Origin: Clostridia bacterium
GTDB taxonomy: Bacteria; Bacillota; Clostridia; TANB77; UBA1234
Length of the DNA stretch: 64,000 bases
Assembly (NCBI GenBank): GCA_017522765.1
Contig: JAFWYG010000005.1
Location: 138,826-202,825 of the forward strand
Reading direction: 5' to 3'
Shown: positions 24,484 to 44,008 of the stretch, piece after piece
Numbering within the stretch: position 1 is the stretch's first letter
How the letters are laid out: every line of letters begins with the position of its first letter
Notes under the pieces: model-generated
Told to the model about the DNA's origin: nothing
Databases searched by the model: none
Seen by the model: only the letters and a program-made list of their open reading frames with translations
Translations under genes and position numbers: made by a program

Positions 24484-26304
24484 TTAATTTACCGATGCAA
24501 CAGTATAAGTGTTGATGCCGGTAGGAGTGAAGGACAGTTGTTTAGTTGCTACTCGTTTGCACACCTCGATTTGGTGTGTGGAGAATAGTACAAGTTTGTC
24601 CTTGCAGTAACTTGCAATGAACTGCAACACCTGGTAGGCGATATCGTCATTGAGATTGTTAGTAGCTTCGTCAAAAGCAACAATCTGGATATCGTCACTG
24701 AGGTTGTACAAAGTTCTTGCGATTGCAAGTCTTTGAAGTTGTCCCGCAGAGAAATGCGTTTTGGTAGTAGAGTTTAAAAGTGCGAAGACATCATCATTCT
24801 TCTGGGAGAACTCATCAAGGAGATGTAGATTTTCCAGAATATAGAGAAGTTTCTCACGATCGTACTCAGGCTTACCCAAAGTGATTTCTGACAAGAGTGT
24901 TTTGGTTCCCATGGCGAGGTACACTTGATGCATGATGGATTTGGCAACACCTTCGCTTTCAGTTTCAATGGTAGGCTCAAACTTATCGGAATAAGTATTC
25001 TGAGTAACCAAGCTAAGAAGCGTTGTTTTACCAGCACCGGTTGCACCGGTGAACATTACAAAGTCGCCACAAACCAGTTGGATAGTTTGTTCGTTGATGA
25101 GTGTAAACGCTCGATTGCCGCCATCTGCTTTGTGCTGCACCTCAAAAGGATTTACGGTGAAAGTAATAAGCTTACTTGCCTTAGCGTCTTGCTTATTTTT
25201 TTCCACTTCGTAAACTGCCATGATAGCATTGAAGTCATCGATACGAATTTTTTCTTCTTCTTGAATCTCACGATAATCATAGAAGATGTCTACGAGAGAG
25301 CCAGAACGTCTGAGCACTTGGTTATAGATTGCAACAAGTGCGATTGCACTTGTGAGCGTTTCGAGGTTAGCATTCATGATGCCATTCTCTAAAAGCGTAA
25401 TTGCAATAATACCAAAGGTAACGAAGGTTAATAATACGCTCTCAATAATTCGGAAGATGTTTACCTCATGCTGAGTAGTGCGCCTTAAGTTGAAGCCCTC
25501 TGAACTAGACTTTACAAAGTTATCAATCATAAACTTCGCGTGATCGGTGTTGAAAGGTTCAACCTGAAGGATGTCTTGCAGTGCATTTTCACTAAGCAGC
25601 GACGCTTTACGAGATGCTCCGCGTCTTTTGTTTCTAATGGATACCCATTTGAAACTGAACAGCACTTTGATGCCTACACCAATAAGTGTAATAAGGTAAA
25701 ACACGAGTGTGTTTTTGACCTCAACATTAGTAACTATCACGAAGCCGATTAGCATTATTGCAGTAGATAGTACCTTGATGGCGTTTTTGAACCAAAATAG
25801 CTGCTTACTCCAGAGGAGCTGGACGTACTTTCGTAGCGTCGTCAGGATTTCGTTCGAGGTCATTTTCTCGTCGAAACCGTGTTCTTCATTGCGCTTGGTG
25901 ACTTTGCCCTTTACCAGGAATAAAATGTTGCCAGCAACTTTTCCAAGTTGAATGAGCTCAGCTTCTTCATAGATAAGCATTTGCTCTGAAAACAACGACT
26001 GGAAGAAAGCGCTTAGCGGATCTCTTGCGTGGTACAACCCAAAGATAATGAGTGCACCGATGATCACACCTTCAACAATGAGCGATTTGCTCAGCTGGAG
26101 AAGGAAGGACGTTGCGTCCATGATCATTGTTTCTGCAGCGTGTGCTAGAAGCAGGAAAAGAAAGATTTTTACCAGCTCTTTAGGAAACCGCAGAATAGGG
26201 AACTTTTGCTGAACTTGCTGTTTTTGCACTTTGGAATCACTCCTTTCAAAGATTTGTGCAAAGATTTCGATATGGTAAAAAGACACCATATCACCTAAAC
26301 TCAT
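24484..26304 (-). CDS. ABC transporter, fused permease/ATP-binding protein (exporter type)
   Basis: N-terminal TM domain. The C-terminal NBD has Walker A GATGAGKTTLL, signature LSAGQLQRLAIAR and Walker B IVAFDEAT. GC is visibly higher (~40-45% by eye) than the flanking genes. The true start may be the second Met (MVSFYH). Confidence 0.8.
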   Translation of the reverse strand: MSLGDMVSFYHIEIFAQIFERSDSKVQKQQVQQKFPILRFPKELVKIFLFLLLAHAAETMIMDATSFLLQLSKSLIVEGVIIGALIIFGLYHARDPLSAFFQSLFSEQMLIYEEAELIQLGKVAGNILFLVKGKVTKRNEEHGFDEKMTSNEILTTLRKYVQLLWSKQLFWFKNAIKVLSTAIMLIGFVIVTNVEVKNTLVFYLITLIGVGIKVLFSFKWVSIRNKRRGASRKASLLSENALQDILQVEPFNTDHAKFMIDNFVKSSSEGFNLRRTTQHEVNIFRIIESVLLTFVTFGIIAITLLENGIMNANLETLTSAIALVAIYNQVLRRSGSLVDIFYDYREIQEEEKIRIDDFNAIMAVYEVEKNKQDAKASKLITFTVNPFEVQHKADGGNRAFTLINEQTIQLVCGDFVMFTGATGAGKTTLLSLVTQNTYSDKFEPTIETESEGVAKSIMHQVYLAMGTKTLLSEITLGKPEYDREKLLYILENLHLLDEFSQKNDDVFALLNSTTKTHFSAGQLQRLAIARTLYNLSDDIQIVAFDEATNNLNDDIAYQVLQFIASYCKDKLVLFSTHQIEVCKRVATKQLSFTPTGINTYTVASVN

Positions 26305-37956: not shown

Positions 37957-39357
37957 ATGTATAAAAACGAAAAACTTGAACAATTTAAAGAATTTATAAA
38001 AGGAAAATATGTAGCTATTATGGGGATGGGTATTAGCAATACCCCCCTTATTAGATACTTAATGGATTTAGATGCAAACATTACTGTATTCGACAAAAAG
38101 AGTGAAGAAGAACTTGGTAAAGCTTTAATTGAAGAATACACTTTACAAGGAGTTAATTTCTCTTTAGGAGATGATTATTTAGAAAAATTACGTGGATATG
38201 ACGTGATTTTCAGAACTCCTGGTATGAGACCAGACTTACCTGTTATTGAAAAGGAAGTTGAAAGAGGTGCAATACTTACTTCTGAAATTGAAATGCTTAT
38301 TGAACTTTGTCCTTCAAAGGTTATTGCTATTACTGGAAGCGATGGTAAAACAACAACTACTACACTTATACATCATATTTTAAAAGAAGAGGGTCACAAT
38401 TGTTACTTGGGTGGTAATATTGGCACACCGCTATTTGCAAGAATAGATGAAATGAAACCAGAAGATATAGTAGTGCTTGAATTAAGTAGTTTCCAACTTA
38501 TGACCTTAAAAAAGAGTCCAAGTATTGCTGTAGTTACTAATGTTTCTCCAAATCATTTAGACGTACATAAATCTTATGAAGAATATATAGAAGCAAAGAA
38601 AAATATCTTTATGACTCAAGATGAGAATGGAATTGTTGTTCTTAACTATGATAACGAAATAACAAACTCATTTTCGGATGATGTTAAAGGAGAGGTAAGA
38701 TTCTTTAGTACTAAATCAAAATTAGAAAATGGTGTAATTTTAGAAGATAGCGACATTAAAATTGTAACTGATGGAAACAAAGAAACAGTTATCAATATAA
38801 ATGATATTTCTTTGCTTGGAATGCACAATATAGAAAATGCTTGTACAGCTATTTCTGCAGTTAGAGATTTAGTTTCTATAGAATCTATTAGAAAGGTTCT
38901 TTCTTCATTTAGAGGTGTTTCACATAGAATGGAGTTTGTTAGAGAACTTGATGGAGCTAAATGGTACAATGATTCTATTGGAAGCAGTCCAACAAGAACA
39001 ATTGCCGGATTAGCTAGCTTTAAAGATAAAGTTATTCTAATTGCTGGTGGGTATGATAAGCATTTAGACTATACAGATATGGGAAGATATGTTGTTGATC
39101 ATGTTAAAAAGCTTATTTTGATGGGACAAACAAAGGATAAGATAAAAGAAGCTACTCTTAAAGAGCTTGAAAAAAGAGATGGTTCTGAATTACCTATTTT
39201 TGAGTGTTCTTCATTGGAAGAAGTTATTGAAGTGGCTAGACGTGAAGCTGTTGAAGGAGACATAATATTCTTCTCTCCAGCGAGTGCAAGCTTCGATATG
39301 TTTAGAAACTTTGAAGAAAGAGGAAATAAATTTAAAGAAATCGTAAATGGCTTGTAA
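37957..39357 (+). CDS. murD: UDP-N-acetylmuramoyl-L-alanine--D-glutamate ligase
   Basis: VIAITGSDGKTTTTTLI and Mur ligase domains. The start was placed at the ATG (MYKNEK) 6 nt after SD aggagtg. Confidence 0.85.
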   Translation: MYKNEKLEQFKEFIKGKYVAIMGMGISNTPLIRYLMDLDANITVFDKKSEEELGKALIEEYTLQGVNFSLGDDYLEKLRGYDVIFRTPGMRPDLPVIEKEVERGAILTSEIEMLIELCPSKVIAITGSDGKTTTTTLIHHILKEEGHNCYLGGNIGTPLFARIDEMKPEDIVVLELSSFQLMTLKKSPSIAVVTNVSPNHLDVHKSYEEYIEAKKNIFMTQDENGIVVLNYDNEITNSFSDDVKGEVRFFSTKSKLENGVILEDSDIKIVTDGNKETVININDISLLGMHNIENACTAISAVRDLVSIESIRKVLSSFRGVSHRMEFVRELDGAKWYNDSIGSSPTRTIAGLASFKDKVILIAGGYDKHLDYTDMGRYVVDHVKKLILMGQTKDKIKEATLKELEKRDGSELPIFECSSLEEVIEVARREAVEGDIIFFSPASASFDMFRNFEERGNKFKEIVNGL

Positions 39358-39446
39358 TATACATAATTTTTAAAATAAAACTTGCAATGTTAACCATTTA
39401 AATATAAAATATAACAAGAAATACAAAAGAGAAGGGGAAATCACTT

Positions 39447-39686
39447 ATGGGAAACGTATTTAGTAAGTTTTTTGTATCTTTTGGATTGACTAAAAAGAAT
39501 AAAGGTTTGCCAGCTCCACAAGAGTTCTCTATGGGGTCTATTGAGGGACTTGACGCGCCAAATTATTCTGTAAAGCCATACAAAACGATTGCCTCATTTG
39601 ATATTAGTATAGATGAACCTAGATATACAGGGGCGATTCCTGATGCATCAATTAAGTTTTATCCTGTAAATAAAAAGAGAAAATAA
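39447..39686 (+). CDS. Small hypothetical protein (79 aa)
   Basis: SD gaaggggaaa upstream; no recognisable motif. It occupies the position upstream of rpmF where a DUF177/YceD gene often sits, but does not resemble DUF177. Confidence 0.4.
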   Translation: MGNVFSKFFVSFGLTKKNKGLPAPQEFSMGSIEGLDAPNYSVKPYKTIASFDISIDEPRYTGAIPDASIKFYPVNKKRK

Positions 39687-39703
39687 GGATTAAATTCAAA
39701 TAC

Positions 39704-39732
39704 TTGACAAAGTAAGAAAAAGAAGATATAAT
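39704..39732 (+). promoter_or_regulatory. Consensus sigma-A promoter upstream of rpmF (TTGACA-17-TATAAT)
   Basis: ttgaca aagtaagaaaaagaaga tataat. Both hexamers match consensus with 17-nt spacing. Confidence 0.7.
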
Positions 39733-39841
39733 TTCGTACGTTGACACTTAGAGTTTAGTCGTTTTACGTGTGATGATAGAGGCTAAACACTCTTAGAAAC
39801 GCACTTACATAAAAATTACCTTAAGAGGAGGGAATAGAAAG

Positions 39842-40036
39842 ATGGCACAACCAAAAAGAAGATGGTCAAAAGCTAGAACTGGATTAAGAAGATCAACTTG
39901 GAAACTTGAAAAACCAAGCCTTGCTGAATGTTCACATTGTCACGAACCAATAGAACCACACAGAGTTTGCAAAAACTGCGGTTACTATGATGGTAAAGAA
40001 GTGAAACCTGTTAAAGCTAAAAAGACAGCTGAATAA
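39842..40036 (+). CDS. rpmF: 50S ribosomal protein L32 (zinc-ribbon form)
   Basis: MAQPKRRWSKARTGLRRSTWKL...CSHCHEP...HRVCKNCGYYDGK matches the Gram-positive L32 pattern with CxxC...CxxC. SD agaggaggg upstream. A terminator lies at 40046-40078. Confidence 0.85.
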   Translation: MAQPKRRWSKARTGLRRSTWKLEKPSLAECSHCHEPIEPHRVCKNCGYYDGKEVKPVKAKKTAE

Positions 40037-40045
40037 GAATGAAGA

Positions 40046-40078
40046 AGCAACTTAAGTTCGAATTAAGTTGCTTTTTTA
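40046..40078 (+). terminator. Rho-independent terminator of rpmF
   Basis: aagcaacttaa-gttcgaa-ttaagttgctttttt. Confidence 0.8.
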
Positions 40079-40113
40079 TTAGTTATACGAATTAACATAA
40101 CGAGGTGAGAACG

Positions 40114-41424
40114 GTGAAAAGAATATATATTAAGGATGTTATTTGTGGTTCTGCAGCAGAAGAAATGGAAATTTCTGGTGGAGATTATTTGCTAACTGTA
40201 AATGGTGTAGAAATAAATGATATATTAGATTACAAATTTCAAATATTTGACGAGTTTATTACTTTGGAAATAGAAAAACCAGATGGCGAAATATGGGATG
40301 TAGAAATAGAGAAAGAAGAAAATGAAGACATTGGTCTTGTTTTTGAAGAGCAACTTATTGATAAACCTAGAAGTTGCGCTAACAAGTGTATTTTTTGCTT
40401 TATGGATCAATTGCCACCTGATGTAAGAGAAACTTTAGTATTCAAAGATGATGATTTCAGACTTTCTTTTATGACAGGAAACTATGTAACATTTACAAAT
40501 TCTGGATATAAAGATTTAGACAGGATTATTAATTATCGTTTAAGTCCTATAAATGTTTCTGTACATGCTACAGATCCTGAAGTTAGAGCAATGATGCTTA
40601 ATAATAGAAATGCTGGAAAAATATTAGATTATATTAAGTATCTTACAGATGAGGGAATACAAGTAAATGCGCAAATAGTACTTTGCCCAGGTATAAATGA
40701 CGGCGAAATATTAGATAAGACAATAACAGATTTGTCTAAGTTTTACCCGAATCTACTATCAATAGCCATTGTTCCTGTTGGACTTTCAAAGCACAGAGAA
40801 GGCTTATATAAATTAGAAGGATTTAATAAAGAAACAGCAACAGCACTTGTTGAACAAGTTGAAAAATGGCAAAAGAAGTTTAAAACAGAAACTGGTTCGA
40901 ATTTAGTATTCTGTGCAGATGAGTTCTACGTAAAATCGGAATTGCCAATACCTGAGTACGATAGATATGAAGATTTTGATCAATTAGAAGATGGAATTGG
41001 ATTGTTGGCATATTTTACTAACAATTTTAAAAATGAGCTTGCCAGAACTGAGCCAAGACCTGTAAATAAGACTGTATCCATTGCTACGGGTAAATGTTCA
41101 TATAAATTTATAAGAGAAAAAGCGGATATTTTGGAACAAACATTTAAAGGTCTAAAGATACACGTTTATGCAATAGAAAATCTATTTTTTGGTCCAGATA
41201 TAACTGTTACAGGATTAATAACCGGTGGCGACTTAATAGAAGGTTTAAAAAACAAAGAATTAGGCGAGTGTCTACTATTATCTGATAAGATGTTAAAGGT
41301 TGATGAAGATGTATTTTTAGACAACACAACGCTAGCAGAAGTAGAAGAAAAACTTAACATAAAATGCGTAAAAACTGACTCTTTAGGATGCGGTTTTATA
41401 GCTGATATTATAGGGAAAATATAA
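40114..41424 (+). CDS. Radical SAM protein with N-terminal PDZ-like domain (DUF512-type)
   Basis: CANKCIFCF is a CxxxCxxC radical-SAM cluster motif. The architecture matches the DUF512 family commonly found near rpmF/plsX. The start is placed at the GTG 6 nt after SD gaggtg; this start is uncertain. Confidence 0.6.
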   Translation: MKRIYIKDVICGSAAEEMEISGGDYLLTVNGVEINDILDYKFQIFDEFITLEIEKPDGEIWDVEIEKEENEDIGLVFEEQLIDKPRSCANKCIFCFMDQLPPDVRETLVFKDDDFRLSFMTGNYVTFTNSGYKDLDRIINYRLSPINVSVHATDPEVRAMMLNNRNAGKILDYIKYLTDEGIQVNAQIVLCPGINDGEILDKTITDLSKFYPNLLSIAIVPVGLSKHREGLYKLEGFNKETATALVEQVEKWQKKFKTETGSNLVFCADEFYVKSELPIPEYDRYEDFDQLEDGIGLLAYFTNNFKNELARTEPRPVNKTVSIATGKCSYKFIREKADILEQTFKGLKIHVYAIENLFFGPDITVTGLITGGDLIEGLKNKELGECLLLSDKMLKVDEDVFLDNTTLAEVEEKLNIKCVKTDSLGCGFIADIIGKI

Positions 41425-41585
41425 AAAATAAATATTGAAACAAAACCCTTGAACTATATATACAAACGGATTTGCAGTTTAGAAGGCTATTTATTTCGTA
41501 AAACTACAAGGAATTATATATAGTTTAAAGGGTATTTTTATGCTTGAAAGTGCTATATATGGGCGATTTTTGCAAACTAGTTATG

Positions 41586-41614
41586 TTGACAAATATTGCT
41601 AAAAGTGATAAAAT
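41586..41614 (+). promoter_or_regulatory. Consensus-like sigma-A promoter (TTGACA-17-TAAAAT) driving the GC-rich island gene
   Basis: ttgaca aatattgctaaaagtga taaaat lies in AT-rich host-like sequence. Composition switches to GC-rich within ~10 nt downstream. Confidence 0.6.
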
Positions 41615-41800
41615 AATTATGTGCTGAATATTTCTGTGCTCTTCAAACAAAGATGCCTGGTCCTTCCGGGTATTTGCTGTTTGAAAGAATGTGACGAATC
41701 TCGTTTACGTTCATTGCTTGGAACTATTCTTTGGCCCCCGCGGTTGAACCGCATCTTCATCTGGCTGCACAAAAAAAATACAACAAGGAGGAGTAATAAG

Positions 41801-42490
41801 ATGAAGAAGAGTACGTGTAAACCCGTTTGGAAGCTGGTCACTATCGTGACTGTAACCCTGGCAGCCCTGTGGCTGGTGTCCTTGATCATCCCCGGTTTGG
41901 GTATCAAGATTGGCGCCACCCTCGGCATTATCTGCTGCGCATTCAGCGTTCTTGGCGTCATCGCCTGGAAGAAGAACGTTGGTCCCATCGCGCTGCTGGT
42001 TGCTATGGTCAAGAAACTCTTTGGCAAGGCTGCCAAGAAGTCTGAGGAGAAGCCTAAGCTTCCTCCCAAGCCCGCTCAGAACGAGGCCATGAAAAAGAAG
42101 GGTCTTGTCTGGACCTGGGACGGTAACGATTGGGTGGTTGAAAAAGACCATTCTAAGGAACCTGTTCCCGCAGGCAAGAAGTATGATGCTGAGACCAACA
42201 CTTTTGTTGATGCATCTGCACCTTCTGCTCCTAAGCCTTCCGCTGACGGTCGTCCTGAGAAGCCCGTTCTGCCAAAGTCCATGAAGGACAATGGTCTTGT
42301 TTGGACCTGGAACGGAACTAACTGGGTTCCCGAGGAAGACCACAGTACTGAGCCCGTGCCGGTTGGCAAGGTTTACGACAAGGAAACCAACACCTTTGTC
42401 GAACTGGGCGATGTCTTCACCGAGGCACAAATGACGGTCATCAAGCAGATCGTCGCTGCTGAGGTGAAAAAGGCTACAAAGAAGCCTTAA
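41801..42490 (+). CDS. Small membrane protein of unknown function (229 aa) in a GC-rich island: two TM helices, then a tandem duplicated ~40-aa module GLVWTW(D/N)G(N/T)(D/N)WV...EPVP.GK.YD.ETNTFV
   Basis: ATG at 41801 is 7 nt after SD aaggaggag. The listed ORF start at 41621 lies in the leader. GC is roughly 50-55% by eye, against ~30% for the neighbours. Codons are CTG/GCC/GGC/AAG/ATC-rich. A GC-clamp terminator follows at 42524-42553. The antisense ORFs over the island are judged spurious. Confidence 0.7.
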   Translation: MKKSTCKPVWKLVTIVTVTLAALWLVSLIIPGLGIKIGATLGIICCAFSVLGVIAWKKNVGPIALLVAMVKKLFGKAAKKSEEKPKLPPKPAQNEAMKKKGLVWTWDGNDWVVEKDHSKEPVPAGKKYDAETNTFVDASAPSAPKPSADGRPEKPVLPKSMKDNGLVWTWNGTNWVPEEDHSTEPVPVGKVYDKETNTFVELGDVFTEAQMTVIKQIVAAEVKKATKKP

Positions 42491-42523
42491 ATCCCAAGCA
42501 CATCCCCGTGGAGGCATTGCTGA

Positions 42524-42553
42524 AGCGGGGGGCCCCTTCGGGGGCTTTTTTTA
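42524..42553 (+). terminator. GC-rich rho-independent terminator (GCCCC-TTCG-GGGGC + T7)
   Basis: aagcggggggcccc-ttcg-ggggc-ttttttt. Confidence 0.85.
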
Positions 42554-42633
42554 TTGCCCAAAGGGGACAACCATCTTTGGACATTCAGAAAAATGTACAA
42601 AAAAGACATCTAACTTTGCACATTTTAAAAATA

Positions 42634-42662
42634 TTTGACTTTTTTTATAAAAGATAGTATTA
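42634..42662 (+). promoter_or_regulatory. Sigma-A promoter of the pheST operon leader
   Basis: ttgact-17-tattat. Confidence 0.55.
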
Positions 42663-42689
42663 TAGTTTTAGTTTTTGACAAAGATCACA

Positions 42690-42918
42690 TATTTAGTAGT
42701 TTACATGAGTTCTTTAAAGAAAGTGAAGGTCACCGGCTGAGAGCCTTTGCAAGATAAACGTGGAAATGAATTTCGGATGTGGGAGTCTTACTAAGAAATT
42801 AGTACGTGTGAAGAGCGTTAATCTTCCTACGAGCTGTCGATTTATAAAATCGGAAGTTGGGTGGTACCGCGAGTTAATTCGTCCCAAACACATTTAATTG
42901 TGTTTGGGATTTTTGTTT
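42690..42918 (+). ncRNA. T-box riboswitch leader (Phe-specific by context) upstream of pheS
   Basis: The conserved T-box sequence aagttgggtggtaccgcg lies at 42854-42871. A terminator hairpin gtcccaaacaca-tttaatt-gtgtttggga + T-run lies at 42880-42918. AGAGA-type stem I elements (ggctgagagcc) are present. The specifier codon is not pinned down; a ttc is present in ...gaatttcgga.... Confidence 0.75.
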
Positions 42919-42961
42919 ATATAAAAATAATTATCTTTCAAATATAAAAGGAGGAAATCAA

Positions 42962-44008
42962 ATGGAAGAGAAAATTCAACTATTGAAGAAAGAACTTTTA
43001 GAAAAATTTGATTCTGTTAAAACAATGCAAGAATTAAATGATTTAAAAGTTCAATACCAAGGAAAGAAAGGTATCATAACTGAACTTAATAGTGGTATTA
43101 AGGATGTACCTGCTGAAGAAAAGAAAGAGTATGGTATGCAAGTTAATGTATTAAGAGAAGCTTTTAATACAGGTTATGAAACTATCAAAACACGTTTAGA
43201 AGAAGAAGCTGTTAATAGAAAATTAAAAGAAGAAACTATTGATATTTCTTTACCTTCTGTAAAAAACATGAGGGGTTCTAAACATCCTTTTAATAGAATT
43301 ATTGAAGAAGTTGAAGATTTATTCGTATCAATGGGATATGATGTTGTAGATGGTCCAGAACTTGAAGATGATGAACATTGCTTCAGACTTTTAAATTATA
43401 CAGTTGGACATCCAGCTCGTGACGCTCAAGATACTTTCTATATTGACGAAGAGTATTTACTTCGTACTCAAACATCTGCATCTCAATCAAGAGTTATGCA
43501 AGCTAATACAGAAAAATCTCCAATCAGAGTTATTTGTCCTGGTAAAACATATAGAAGAGATGATGATGCAACTCACTCTCATCAATTCGGACAAGTTGAA
43601 GGTTTAGTAATTGATAAAAATATTTCTCTTGCAGATTTAAAAGGAACTCTTGAAATATTTGCAAAGAAACTTTTAGGTGAAGAAACTAAAGTACGTTTCA
43701 GACCAAGTTATTTCCCATTTACATCACCATCTTGTGAAGTTGATGTTACTTGCTTCAAATGTGGAGGTAAAGGTTGTCCACTTTGTAAGAAAACAGGTTG
43801 GATAGAATTGCTTGGTGCAGGTATGGTTCATCCTAACGTTTTAAGAATGGGTGGATATGATCCAGACAAATTCACAGGATTTGCTTTCGGTACAGGTCTT
43901 GATAGACTTGCAATGTTTAGATATGCAATTCCTGATATTCGTTATATGTATACAAACGATATTAGATTCTTAAAACAATTCGATGAAACAGACGTTGAAA
44001 ATGTATAG
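42962..44008 (+). CDS. pheS: Phenylalanine--tRNA ligase alpha subunit
   Basis: Class II aaRS motifs (FRPSYFPFTSPS, GAGMVHPNVL...GFAFGTGLDRLAM). Confidence 0.9.
   Translation: MEEKIQLLKKELLEKFDSVKTMQELNDLKVQYQGKKGIITELNSGIKDVPAEEKKEYGMQVNVLREAFNTGYETIKTRLEEEAVNRKLKEETIDISLPSVKNMRGSKHPFNRIIEEVEDLFVSMGYDVVDGPELEDDEHCFRLLNYTVGHPARDAQDTFYIDEEYLLRTQTSASQSRVMQANTEKSPIRVICPGKTYRRDDDATHSHQFGQVEGLVIDKNISLADLKGTLEIFAKKLLGEETKVRFRPSYFPFTSPSCEVDVTCFKCGGKGCPLCKKTGWIELLGAGMVHPNVLRMGGYDPDKFTGFAFGTGLDRLAMFRYAIPDIRYMYTNDIRFLKQFDETDVENV

Follow-up and report, generated by a model that had tools for sequence, protein, structure and literature searches.

The stretch of DNA analysed here, in the following simply called the window, comprises 64,000 nucleotides (nt) of a Clostridia bacterium (contig JAFWYG010000005.1, positions 138,826 to 202,825), and the present analysis is centered on one of its genes, here named gene X, which codes for a small membrane protein of 229 amino acids (aa). 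Gene X is located between a gene for a DUF512 radical-SAM protein and the T-box/pheST operon, in a neighbourhood that includes PBP1, PFK, MurD, L32, DUF512, PheST, a UvrD-like helicase and an HhH-GPD base-excision repair protein. Its promoter (41581-41614, plus strand) consists of a -35 element TTGACA (41586-41591) that is directly abutted by the sequence TTATGT, a spacer of 17 nt and an extended -10 element TGaTAAAAT (41606-41614). Transcription is predicted to start at ~41620. The promoter is followed by a leader with a conserved 5' domain (41620-41726, plus strand) and a variable 3' part (41727-41800, plus strand), by the coding sequence (CDS; 41801-42490, plus strand), which starts with ATG at 41801 behind the ribosome binding site (RBS) AAGGAGG (41785-41791), and by a 3' untranslated region (UTR) with an intrinsic terminator (42491-42555, plus strand; GGGGCCCCTTCGGGGGC plus T7). 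An initial annotation of this DNA had described a consensus promoter, a GC-clamp terminator and a monocistronic unit coding for a protein with two transmembrane (TM) helices and duplicated Trp-rich modules. All of this agrees with our results: the promoter fits 11 of the 12 consensus positions (TTGACA-17-TAAAAT) plus the TG extension, the terminator stem (42526-42540) runs into a T run, and the unit was confirmed by the open reading frame (ORF) and by an AlphaFold2 (AF2) model.

The most conspicuous property of this unit is its composition. Positions 41650-42555 contain 51.5% GC, compared to 31.5% (sd 2.6) in the remainder of the window. Expressed in segments of 905 nt, the island reaches 0.515, and all other such segments of the 64 kb have a mean of 0.315 (sd 0.026) and a maximum of 0.429, so that the sharp island of the initial annotation stands and cannot be assigned to the high-GC tail of the surroundings. 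The GC content is 0.431 in the leader (41620-41800), 0.525 in the CDS and 0.585 in the 3' UTR with the terminator, and the intergenic regions on either side of the island have values of 0.273 and 0.276. A jump in GC content within about 10 nt of the -10 element, as originally described, was not seen: positions 41601-41650 still have a GC content of 0.26 and the increase begins near 41651, within the structured leader. At the codon level, gene X has GC contents of 0.55, 0.41 and 0.62 at the first, second and third codon position, respectively, the third-position value (GC3) being 0.60-0.62 compared to a mean of 0.204 (sd 0.075) for 50 long ORFs of the window. The neighbouring genes have GC3 values of 0.14-0.25, with 0.14-0.20 for MurD, L32, DUF512, PheS and PheT, and all four orthologs at the X position have values of 0.54-0.62. 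The sole other GC3 outlier among the 50 ORFs lies at 24484-26304 on the minus strand (GC 0.42, GC3 0.46, 0.24 A at third positions) and codes for a 606-aa ABC exporter with fused permease and ATPase, whose CydC/CydD-like matches remain far under their cutoffs.

The shift at third positions is not uniform among the four bases. From host to gene X, the fraction of A (A3) falls from 0.43 to 0.09 and that of T (T3) from 0.38 to 0.28, and C and G each rise three- to four-fold. In the four-fold boxes, NNA is exchanged mainly for NNC and NNT is retained; in the case of Lys, Glu and Gln, NNA is exchanged for NNG. Codons ending in A are depleted 2-10 fold. CTG serves 8 of 16 Leu, CCC 9 of 19 Pro, ACC 8 of 16 Thr and AAG 28 of 33 Lys residues of X. 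The corresponding counts in four neighbouring genes are 0/194 for CTG, 0/34 for CAG, 1/63 for CCC, 3/107 for ACC, 3/96 for GCC and 46/173 for AAG; CTG, CAG, CCC, ACC and GCC are therefore near-absent there, yet they are major codons of X. Across the clade, X genes show GC3 values of 0.41-0.73 and A3 values of 0.04-0.22, and the adjoining DUF512 genes show GC3 values of about 0.2 and A3 values of 0.28-0.48. No tRNA gene was found in the window or in 21 related loci.

Substitution patterns show that X is a real coding gene under purifying selection. In the repeat domain and C-terminal part, the ratio of nonsynonymous to synonymous substitution rates (dN/dS) is 0.047-0.062, with 44-51% of the synonymous sites changed (proportion pS of 0.44-0.51); in the N-terminal part with the TM helices and the linker, the ratio is 0.2-0.56. 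The identical protein is present on 13 independently assembled contigs of up to 766 kb from different samples, always between the DUF512 radical-SAM gene and pheS. An assembly chimera, which the initial annotation had named as a possible refutation, is thereby ruled out. Three orthologs (88%, 71% and 63% identity) occupy the same position, and one of these was annotated too short, its true ORF being L012:1413-2144.

The occupancy of the site was followed by a DUF512 protein scan of the species representatives in the Genome Taxonomy Database (GTDB), which resulted in 80 loci; the loci compared are numbered here with the prefix L. The site carries a homologous gene in an inner clade (window, L011-L015, L096, L097, L099) and in an outer clade (L016-L022, L024). 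No empty site was found among relatives whose DUF512 identity ranges from 97% to about 65-70%; the check for presence or absence in relatives, proposed earlier, showed that the site is occupied in all close relatives examined. In the closest species, about 16 with DUF512 identities of 64-93%, the gene after DUF512 invariably codes for a protein of one build: the N-terminus is basic, the TM hairpin closes with an FP/IPG turn, and behind it come a linker that is either acidic or rich in Pro and a tail that varies. The GC3 of this gene is always within the range given above for the clade. By tblastn no X relative was detectable in the 80 loci; over the hairpin, hhalign connected the proteins of the inner and the outer clade with a probability of 97% (E = 6.6e-11). 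More distant relatives (DUF512 identity of 52% or less) have the usual DUF512-der-plsY order and no gene of the X kind, and intermediate genomes carry small membrane proteins with only mildly raised GC3. The metagenome-assembled genomes of the clade originate from ruminants, deer, rabbit and human.

Other small genes were seen at or near this site. In the intermediate relatives, at L030:7437-7658, L032:7406-7642, L037:7460-7717 and L038:7409-7660, DUF512 is followed by a protein of 73-85 aa with a single TM helix and the conserved Cys motif CYHTxxDCExC...C. Furthermore, a second orphan gene of 222-225 aa follows X in some outer-clade loci (L016:8315-8983, L017:8158-8826, L022:9307-9984 and the ORF downstream of X in L020); its product starts with 'MEIAAMMDYSEMDKNYQ...', its GC3 is 0.45-0.57, and it has no match in Pfam, NCBIfam or PADLOC.

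If the composition of gene X were a relic in decay, it should have approached that of the host. A two-state decay model, with a host equilibrium GC3 of 0.20 and with the pairwise synonymous divergence (dS) of the neighbours and of X (0.66-1.35) as inputs, predicts that an ancestral GC3 of 0.62 would have dropped to 0.25-0.35, but each of the four lineages was found within 0.54-0.62. Between X orthologs the synonymous sites have come close to saturation (dS 0.66-1.6), and the GC3 excess is still retained. The same trend was obtained with outgroup-polarised synonymous changes in the repeat domain: 9 changes went from strong (G or C) to weak (A or T) bases and 7 in the opposite direction, where relaxation expects 86% strong-to-weak changes (P = 0.004). 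As a control, the same polarisation was applied to DUF512 and gave an implausible excess of weak-to-strong changes (44 vs 6), which shows that parsimony is biased at saturated, skewed sites; the result for X is therefore only supportive. The stronger argument against a fossil of transfer is that the anomaly is kept by allele classes without residual sequence similarity. Altogether the unusual composition is a strand-specific synonymous regime that is common to all allele classes and at apparent equilibrium despite near-saturated synonymous divergence. With the intermediate GC3 of the outer-clade members, the trait looks as if it evolved in situ inside one clade of uncultured gut Clostridia.

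These allele classes became apparent when closely related species were aligned. In the case of L099, whose DUF512 protein is 97.2% identical to that of the window, homology extends over 38800-41726 (90%), is lost over the 3' leader and the CDS, and is back at the stop codon at 42490 (91%). With the breakpoints mapped against three genomes with DUF512 identities of 92-97%, the left border falls at 41722 against L097 and at 41726 against L014, and the right border at 42489/42490, or at 42527 in the case of L097. Accordingly, the allele classes of L099, L097 and L014 are homologous to the leader of the window up to 41722-41726, and the homology is gone beyond. The exchangeable, idiomorph-like segment defined in this way (41727-42489, plus strand; 763 nt, GC 0.519) contains the 3' leader with the RBS and the CDS, and it is non-homologous between close species. 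As judged from these alignments, it is shown to behave as a swappable cassette, and its allele classes, at least three in number, are deeply divergent and shuffled in their modules. The class of the window has two WTW(D/N)GxxW...YDxETNTF modules; the L014 class has a poly-Asp tract, different beta-hairpin modules and a three-helix C-terminus; the L015 type represents a further class. Mosaics occur as well, with a window-like hairpin and an L014-like tail in P0007/L096 and a zinc-ribbon-like tail in P0031. All classes share the TM hairpin with the FP/IPG turn plus short modules, and since these shared modules have no similarity at the nucleotide level between classes, the classes and the exchanges among them are old.

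The distribution of the classes does not follow relatedness. The window and L099 (DUF512 97.2% identical) belong to different classes, the window and L011 (94.2%) to the same class, and L014 and L099 (91.5%) again share a class. On these identities the class distribution contradicts the species tree, the species phylogeny being represented by one flanking gene, DUF512. Within the species of the window, exact look-ups of DUF512 and PheS gave only the 229-aa allele. No second copy of any part of X (silent cassette or template of a diversity-generating retroelement), no G-runs and no G-quadruplex (G4) motifs were found in the 64-kb window, and the cassette holds no co-varying neighbour or partner gene. 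A target of a diversity-generating retroelement was considered and rejected, as the window contains no template repeat and the differences among alleles are indels and swapped modules rather than substitutions at A sites; genes for reverse transcriptases were not systematically searched. Cassette-type antigenic variation was likewise rejected in view of the missing second copy in the window and the 13 contigs with the identical protein.

The flanks of the cassette are conserved. The window, L011-L015, L096, L097 and L099 have in common the promoter, the leader over its initial ~105 nt and a terminator of the sequence GGGGCCCCTTCGGGGGCT7, and the terminator GGGGCCCCTTCGGGGGCTTTTTTT is kept in every inner-clade locus regardless of allele class. 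The promoter sequence TTATGTTGACAAA...TGnTAAAAT is invariant in the window, L011-L015 and L096 despite their differing CDS, and it occurs once in the window. Promoters of the X genes in the outer clade (L018-L028; e.g. L020:7385-7425, L022:8390-8435, L024:5270-5310) share TTGAC(A/T)-(A/T)TTTACATAA(T/A) in the -35 and spacer region and are frequently preceded by a second ACATAAT box at a distance of 10-25 nt, whose reverse complement TTATGT abuts the -35 element in the inner clade. This arrangement is a candidate operator for a regulator.

In the conserved 5' domain of the leader, a closing helix (UUCUGUGC/GCUUGGAA) encloses the hairpins P2 (41644-41685) and P3 (41687-41712); this domain lies outside the cassette. 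The cassette-specific 3' part holds a hairpin CGCGGU/ACCGC(A) at ~41739-41753, a strand directed against the start (CAUCUUCAUCU, 41752-41762), an A-rich spacer and the RBS. Overall, the leader of ~180 nt folds better than shuffled sequences (z = -3.3 for the minimum free energy, MFE), and the RNAalifold consensus again consists of a closing helix around two hairpins. In an alignment of six leader sequences, 88% of the cells are paired, compared to 40-49% with the partners slid, a value reached by none of 500 shuffles, and 11 pairs show compensatory changes. The segment UCUUCAUCU (41753-41761) pairs with AGAUGAAGA (41799-41807), which contains the AUG, both in the MFE structure and in the alignment consensus. 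In L096 the occluding helix covaries (CUUCAUCAU with AUGAUGAAG), and in L013 the leader buries the Shine-Dalgarno (SD) sequence rather than the start codon. These predicted structures suggest that expression is probably gated post-transcriptionally by a leader that hides the start codon, or the SD sequence in one allele. The leader motif is single-copy in the window, and in the window Rfam gave no match to it at the gathering threshold and only noise at E <= 10. Two further details of this region were noted: the leader of L014 (7625-7645) contains a tiny upstream ORF, ATG-CCT-AAG-ATA-TAA, that ends at the RBS, and L021 (7520-7535) has 'MSD*' at the ancestral start and a new start further downstream.

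The protein itself begins with a basic N-terminus, followed by TM1 (residues 11-29, nt 41831-41887), the FP/IPG loop, TM2 (residues 39-56, nt 41915-41968), an amphipathic helix (residues 62-74), a Lys/Pro linker, repeat 1 (nt ~42077-42211), a Pro-rich spacer, repeat 2 (nt ~42269-42403) and a C-terminal helix (residues 205-226, nt 42413-42478). A third hydrophobic stretch pointed out earlier (residues 61-74) does not qualify as a TM helix, being too short and deleted in one ortholog. The two repeats have ~45 aa each, and their nucleotide copies (42068-42210 and 42260-42402) are 68% identical. In the AF2 model each repeat forms a short helix and two beta-hairpins with a predicted local distance difference test (pLDDT) of 75-82, and residues 208-226 form the C-terminal amphipathic helix. 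The model of the L014-type protein has the same design. The N-terminus is strongly basic, the loop between the TM helices has a single Lys, and the region after TM2 is basic again; the TM hairpin is thus predicted to have both termini inside, with a cytoplasmic, modular and partly disordered tail.

Searches for relatives confirmed that no family can be assigned, in line with the initial annotation. In Pfam the best profile was DUF1614, on the TM region, with 17.2 bits compared to a cutoff of 23.9, and NCBIfam gave nothing below E = 0.1. PHROG_24912, a family of unknown function, matches the last 24 residues (E = 4e-5). For X, for proteins of two other allele classes and for a neighbouring gene Y, nothing in Pfam, NCBIfam, PHROG or PADLOC passed the thresholds, PADLOC reporting 0 families. 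SHOCT, DUF2510, WW-like, holin and other known families gave no profile match to X above the curated threshold, and the PDB contained no sequence or fold match to X or to the L014-type model. Among 5.8 billion clusters, the family comprised 4 and then 18, and all 9 clusters whose context was checked lie at the same chromosomal locus. When 1.84 billion representatives were read exhaustively with a HMMER profile, nothing emerged beyond orthologs, one mosaic allele and matches to repeat proteins at the level of a motif. No relative was found among INPHARED phages, PLSDB plasmids or IMG/VR, a metagenome scan with the promoter pattern gave only one unrelated chance match (L094), and full-text literature searches gave no description of such a locus. 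Our best guess, because of anatomy and evolutionary behaviour alone, is that X may function as a membrane-tethered cytoplasmic adaptor or specificity determinant.

Some features of the neighbourhood deserve mention on their own. A T-box leader lies upstream of pheS (42672-42889, plus strand) with 85.7 bits (E = 9e-19); as the Rfam gathering score is 93, it falls just below this limit and a default Rfam scan of the window consequently reports no RNA family. T-box and pheS (window 42630-44008) are 94-98% identical at the nucleotide level between species (pheS dS 0.17-0.29), compared to 83-85% (dS 1.0-1.9) for DUF512 1.5 kb upstream (window 40105-41424), in a comparison with L011, L012, L014, L015 and L096. 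This suggests that pheST underwent a recent inter-species sweep or exchange, or is under unusually strong synonymous constraint. Between the terminator of X and the T-box promoter lies a GC-rich palindromic unit of ~30 nt (consensus ..GTCCAAAnnGGGACGTCCnnnnTTGGAC..) that is present once or twice according to species (window 42556-42625, degenerate; L096:1105-1190; L012:2225-2300; L014:8475-8500), which was found at this site alone among 101 loci. Lastly, a conserved 79-aa ORF lies between murD and rpmF (39447-39686, plus strand); all related contigs have a gene call for it, and it belongs to no family of Pfam or NCBIfam.

Taken together, we consider it somewhat better than an even chance that X represents a vertically inherited, idiomorph-like cassette locus, whose codon regime is actively maintained and whose expression is probably gated post-transcriptionally. 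In this model promoter, structured leader, CDS and terminator would form one expression unit that is inherited vertically at the fixed site between DUF512 and T-box/pheST. The host-atypical codons may be kept by slow or conditional decoding by a minor subset of tRNAs, by an mRNA that is stabler and more structured than the AU-rich transcripts of the host, or by avoidance of spurious AT-rich signals. The leader would occlude the start codon and thus gate the translation of X. The Trp-zipper-like beta-hairpin modules and the C-terminal helix would bind a partner, and this partner would drive the diversification of the allele classes. Because the bias is strand- and codon-position-specific and stable over a long time, we infer that the regime is upheld by selection on mRNA or decoding and is not the scar of a foreign origin or another process acting on both strands, such as biased gene conversion. 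Several points weigh against this model. The covariation of the leader was read from six related sequences that had also served to derive its structure; the test of polarised substitutions comprises 16 events, with parsimony being biased at saturated sites. Recombination, evident from the mosaic alleles, could add GC via biased gene conversion. The cytoplasmic topology is a prediction from the charge distribution, and the orthology of the outermost members (L025, L026, L028, L039) is based on architecture and position only. Finally, mRNA folding beyond composition is inconsistent, with z-scores against codon shuffles of -4.8 for the window, -1.3 for L014, -0.4 for L016 and -3.3 for the pheS control. 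As these scores vary among alleles and the AT-rich pheS control is also at -3.3, selection for a global mRNA structure was dropped as an explanation.

The main rival for the composition is a recombination hotspot, in which flank-mediated exchange between species and biased heteroduplex repair would raise the GC content and the codons would be a by-product. Mosaic alleles, sharp breakpoints and classes that are incongruent with the DUF512 phylogeny are what such a process would leave, and the 95-98% nucleotide similarity of the neighbouring T-box/pheS (dS 0.17-0.29) suggests recent exchange nearby. We nevertheless hold this explanation to be unlikely. Gene conversion is strand-symmetric, yet A3 drops ~5-fold and T3 ~1.3-fold, with A going to C and T being retained in the four-fold boxes. 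The apparently recently exchanged pheS/T-box segment has the lowest GC3 (0.14), the recombining flanks (5' leader domain and intergenic regions) are not GC-rich outside of stems, and the absence of nucleotide similarity among the shared modules places the exchanges far back in time. Moreover, biased gene conversion in bacteria reportedly shifts GC3 by a few points, not by 40. A recently acquired, moron-like foreign islet, coming from a donor with ~50-55% GC, provided with a host promoter and not yet ameliorated, appears very improbable and is largely refuted. It would account for a composition and codon usage far from those of the host and for a tiny orphan family; against it, relatives with DUF512 identities from 97% down to ~65-70% all carry a gene at the site, the anomaly persists at dS values between 0.66 and more than 1.5 and in classes that cannot be aligned, and the intermediate GC3 of the outer clade fits evolution in situ. 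No donor was found in the 5.8 billion clusters, the 1.84 billion representatives, INPHARED, PLSDB or IMG/VR, and mobility genes, tRNA genes and direct repeats are all missing. In this last respect the initial annotation, which saw no integrase, transposase or flanking repeats, was right: the neighbours are housekeeping genes and the repeats are at chance level. Its view of the codon usage as foreign needs to be divided, as host-atypical codons are confirmed and an origin by transfer is unsupported, given synteny, conserved GC3, balanced changes and the lack of a donor. Scarcely credible is the idea that the island is a structured non-coding RNA, or that an antisense ORF (41711-42517, minus strand; 268 aa), which is in register with the codons of X and covers the whole CDS, is the true gene and the sense ORF incidental. 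Structured RNAs frequently show as GC-rich tracts in AT-rich Firmicutes, and 12 of 18 related cassettes keep the equivalent antisense frame open. The frame is open because X has no TTA, CTA or TCA codons, and with a sense dN/dS of 0.05 the changes at half of the synonymous sites hit first codon positions of the antisense frame, so that its product is not conserved. The signals for expression (promoter, RBS and terminator) belong to the plus strand, Rfam gives no match and the excess of mRNA structure is inconsistent; substitution pattern and stop-codon explanation together led us to reject both variants.

A further possibility concerns function and can coexist with the cassette model outlined above. 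X could be a component of conflict or recognition, for instance in superinfection exclusion, as an abortive-infection (Abi) sensor, in immunity or as a self/non-self factor, with a phage or toxin partner balancing the alleles. Non-homologous classes at one locus that are incongruent with phylogeny, modules shuffled among alleles, purifying selection inside a class with very large divergence between classes, and the small membrane-anchored architecture would all fit. Set against this, PADLOC, Pfam and PHROG give no support, the gene is present in every relative and not patchy, its neighbours are housekeeping genes and form no defence island, the variable domain is predicted to be cytoplasmic, only one allele is found within the species of the window (13 contigs), and the cassette has no partner gene. 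We therefore consider such a role a serious but doubtful candidate. The functions brought up in the initial annotation (phage exclusion, Abi, immunity or an anti-sigma-like sensor) would be similarly doubtful, although the non-phylogenetic classes are compatible with recognition or conflict. More speculative, and in our opinion distinctly improbable, is that X is a 'codon-insulated' gene: in all its allele classes the cassette would be held by selection in NNC and NNG codons, away from the NNA codons dominant in the host, and draw on a separate tRNA subset. In combination with the start-occluding leader this would give a conditional output, the protein being made or spared whenever the major U34 tRNAs run short, lack their modification or have been cleaved, with the tail setting partner specificity. 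Triggers would be an anticodon-nuclease attack by phage or toxin, or nutrient stress.

Comparison with known systems shows partial similarities. With a horizontally acquired islet or ORFan 'moron', X shares the sharp compositional and codon anomaly, the orphan family and the organisation as one small gene equipped with a promoter and a terminator of its own; unlike these, its site is fixed, syntenic and occupied, the anomaly is kept over saturating divergence, and there are no signs of mobility or of an external pool. Fungal MAT idiomorphs, staphylococcal agr and streptococcal com groups are idiomorphic or allelic-specificity loci, and like these the X locus has dissimilar sequences in conserved flanks, classes that cross the phylogeny and purifying selection within a class. 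The X cassette differs in being a single gene without a signal, receptor or regulator partner and with no within-species polymorphism seen, and it adds a host-atypical codon regime. In Borrelia, the antigenic-variation expression site vlsE has cassettes of ~50% GC in a genome of 28% GC. The resemblance lies in a GC-rich, hypervariable gene with conserved ends and a variable centre in an AT-rich genome, but X has no silent donors, other copies or G4 motifs in the window and only a weak GC skew of the CDS compared to the flanks. Unlike vlsE and pilE, its variable part is predicted to be cytoplasmic and its alleles are stable within the species. The bldA/TTA regulon of Streptomyces consists of genes gated by rare codons. 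Similarly, X is built of codons that are near-absent in the four sampled neighbouring genes, which would make its translation depend on minor tRNAs; X would be the mirror image, with GC-ending codons in an AT-rich host and with the whole gene rather than single codons being affected.

At the protein level, the WTW(D/N)GxxW motif resembles the VLKWNGTxWxP repeats of giant tail-fibre-like proteins and the Kelch sequence DTWTWDGTxW (HMMER E = 1e-4 to 1e-17, multi-repeat proteins). AF2 models the motif as a beta-hairpin. Only ~12-30 residues match, architecture, size and taxa differ, and no Pfam model is hit, thus we regard this as resemblance of a motif and not as membership of a family. Class II holins (less than ~150 aa, two TM helices, charged C-terminus) share the two TM helices and the charged tail with X; they were rejected as an explanation, since X is longer (229 aa), contains folded repeat modules and has neither a lysin nor a phage gene in its vicinity. 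At the RNA level, the leader is similar to translation-occluding leaders such as riboswitch platforms and RNA thermometers in having a structured 5' domain, then a helix on the start codon or SD sequence, and covariation. It differs from these in having no Rfam match and in that its occluding helix varies by class, being part of the variable cassette.

In conclusion, the X locus touches on how genomic composition is read. In practice, horizontal transfer is by default recognised from an atypical GC content and codon usage, and this locus is a clean counter-example: gene X is maximally foreign-looking, with a GC3 of 0.6-0.7 in genomes with a GC3 of 0.2, yet it is fixed vertically at one site across the clade. 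Composition-based island finders will mislabel loci of this kind. In addition, the locus provides uncultured gut Clostridia with an example of an idiomorph-like cassette site, a candidate for a new structured leader, predicted to occlude the start codon, and an orphan family of membrane proteins without relatives elsewhere among billions of sequences. If gene X is indeed codon-insulated, it would combine the mirror image of bldA/TTA gating with an allelic specificity locus. If it is true that selection holds the codon regime, the locus would be a natural system for the roles of synonymous sites in an AT-rich bacterium, be it tRNA partitioning, mRNA stability or the avoidance of AT-rich signals.

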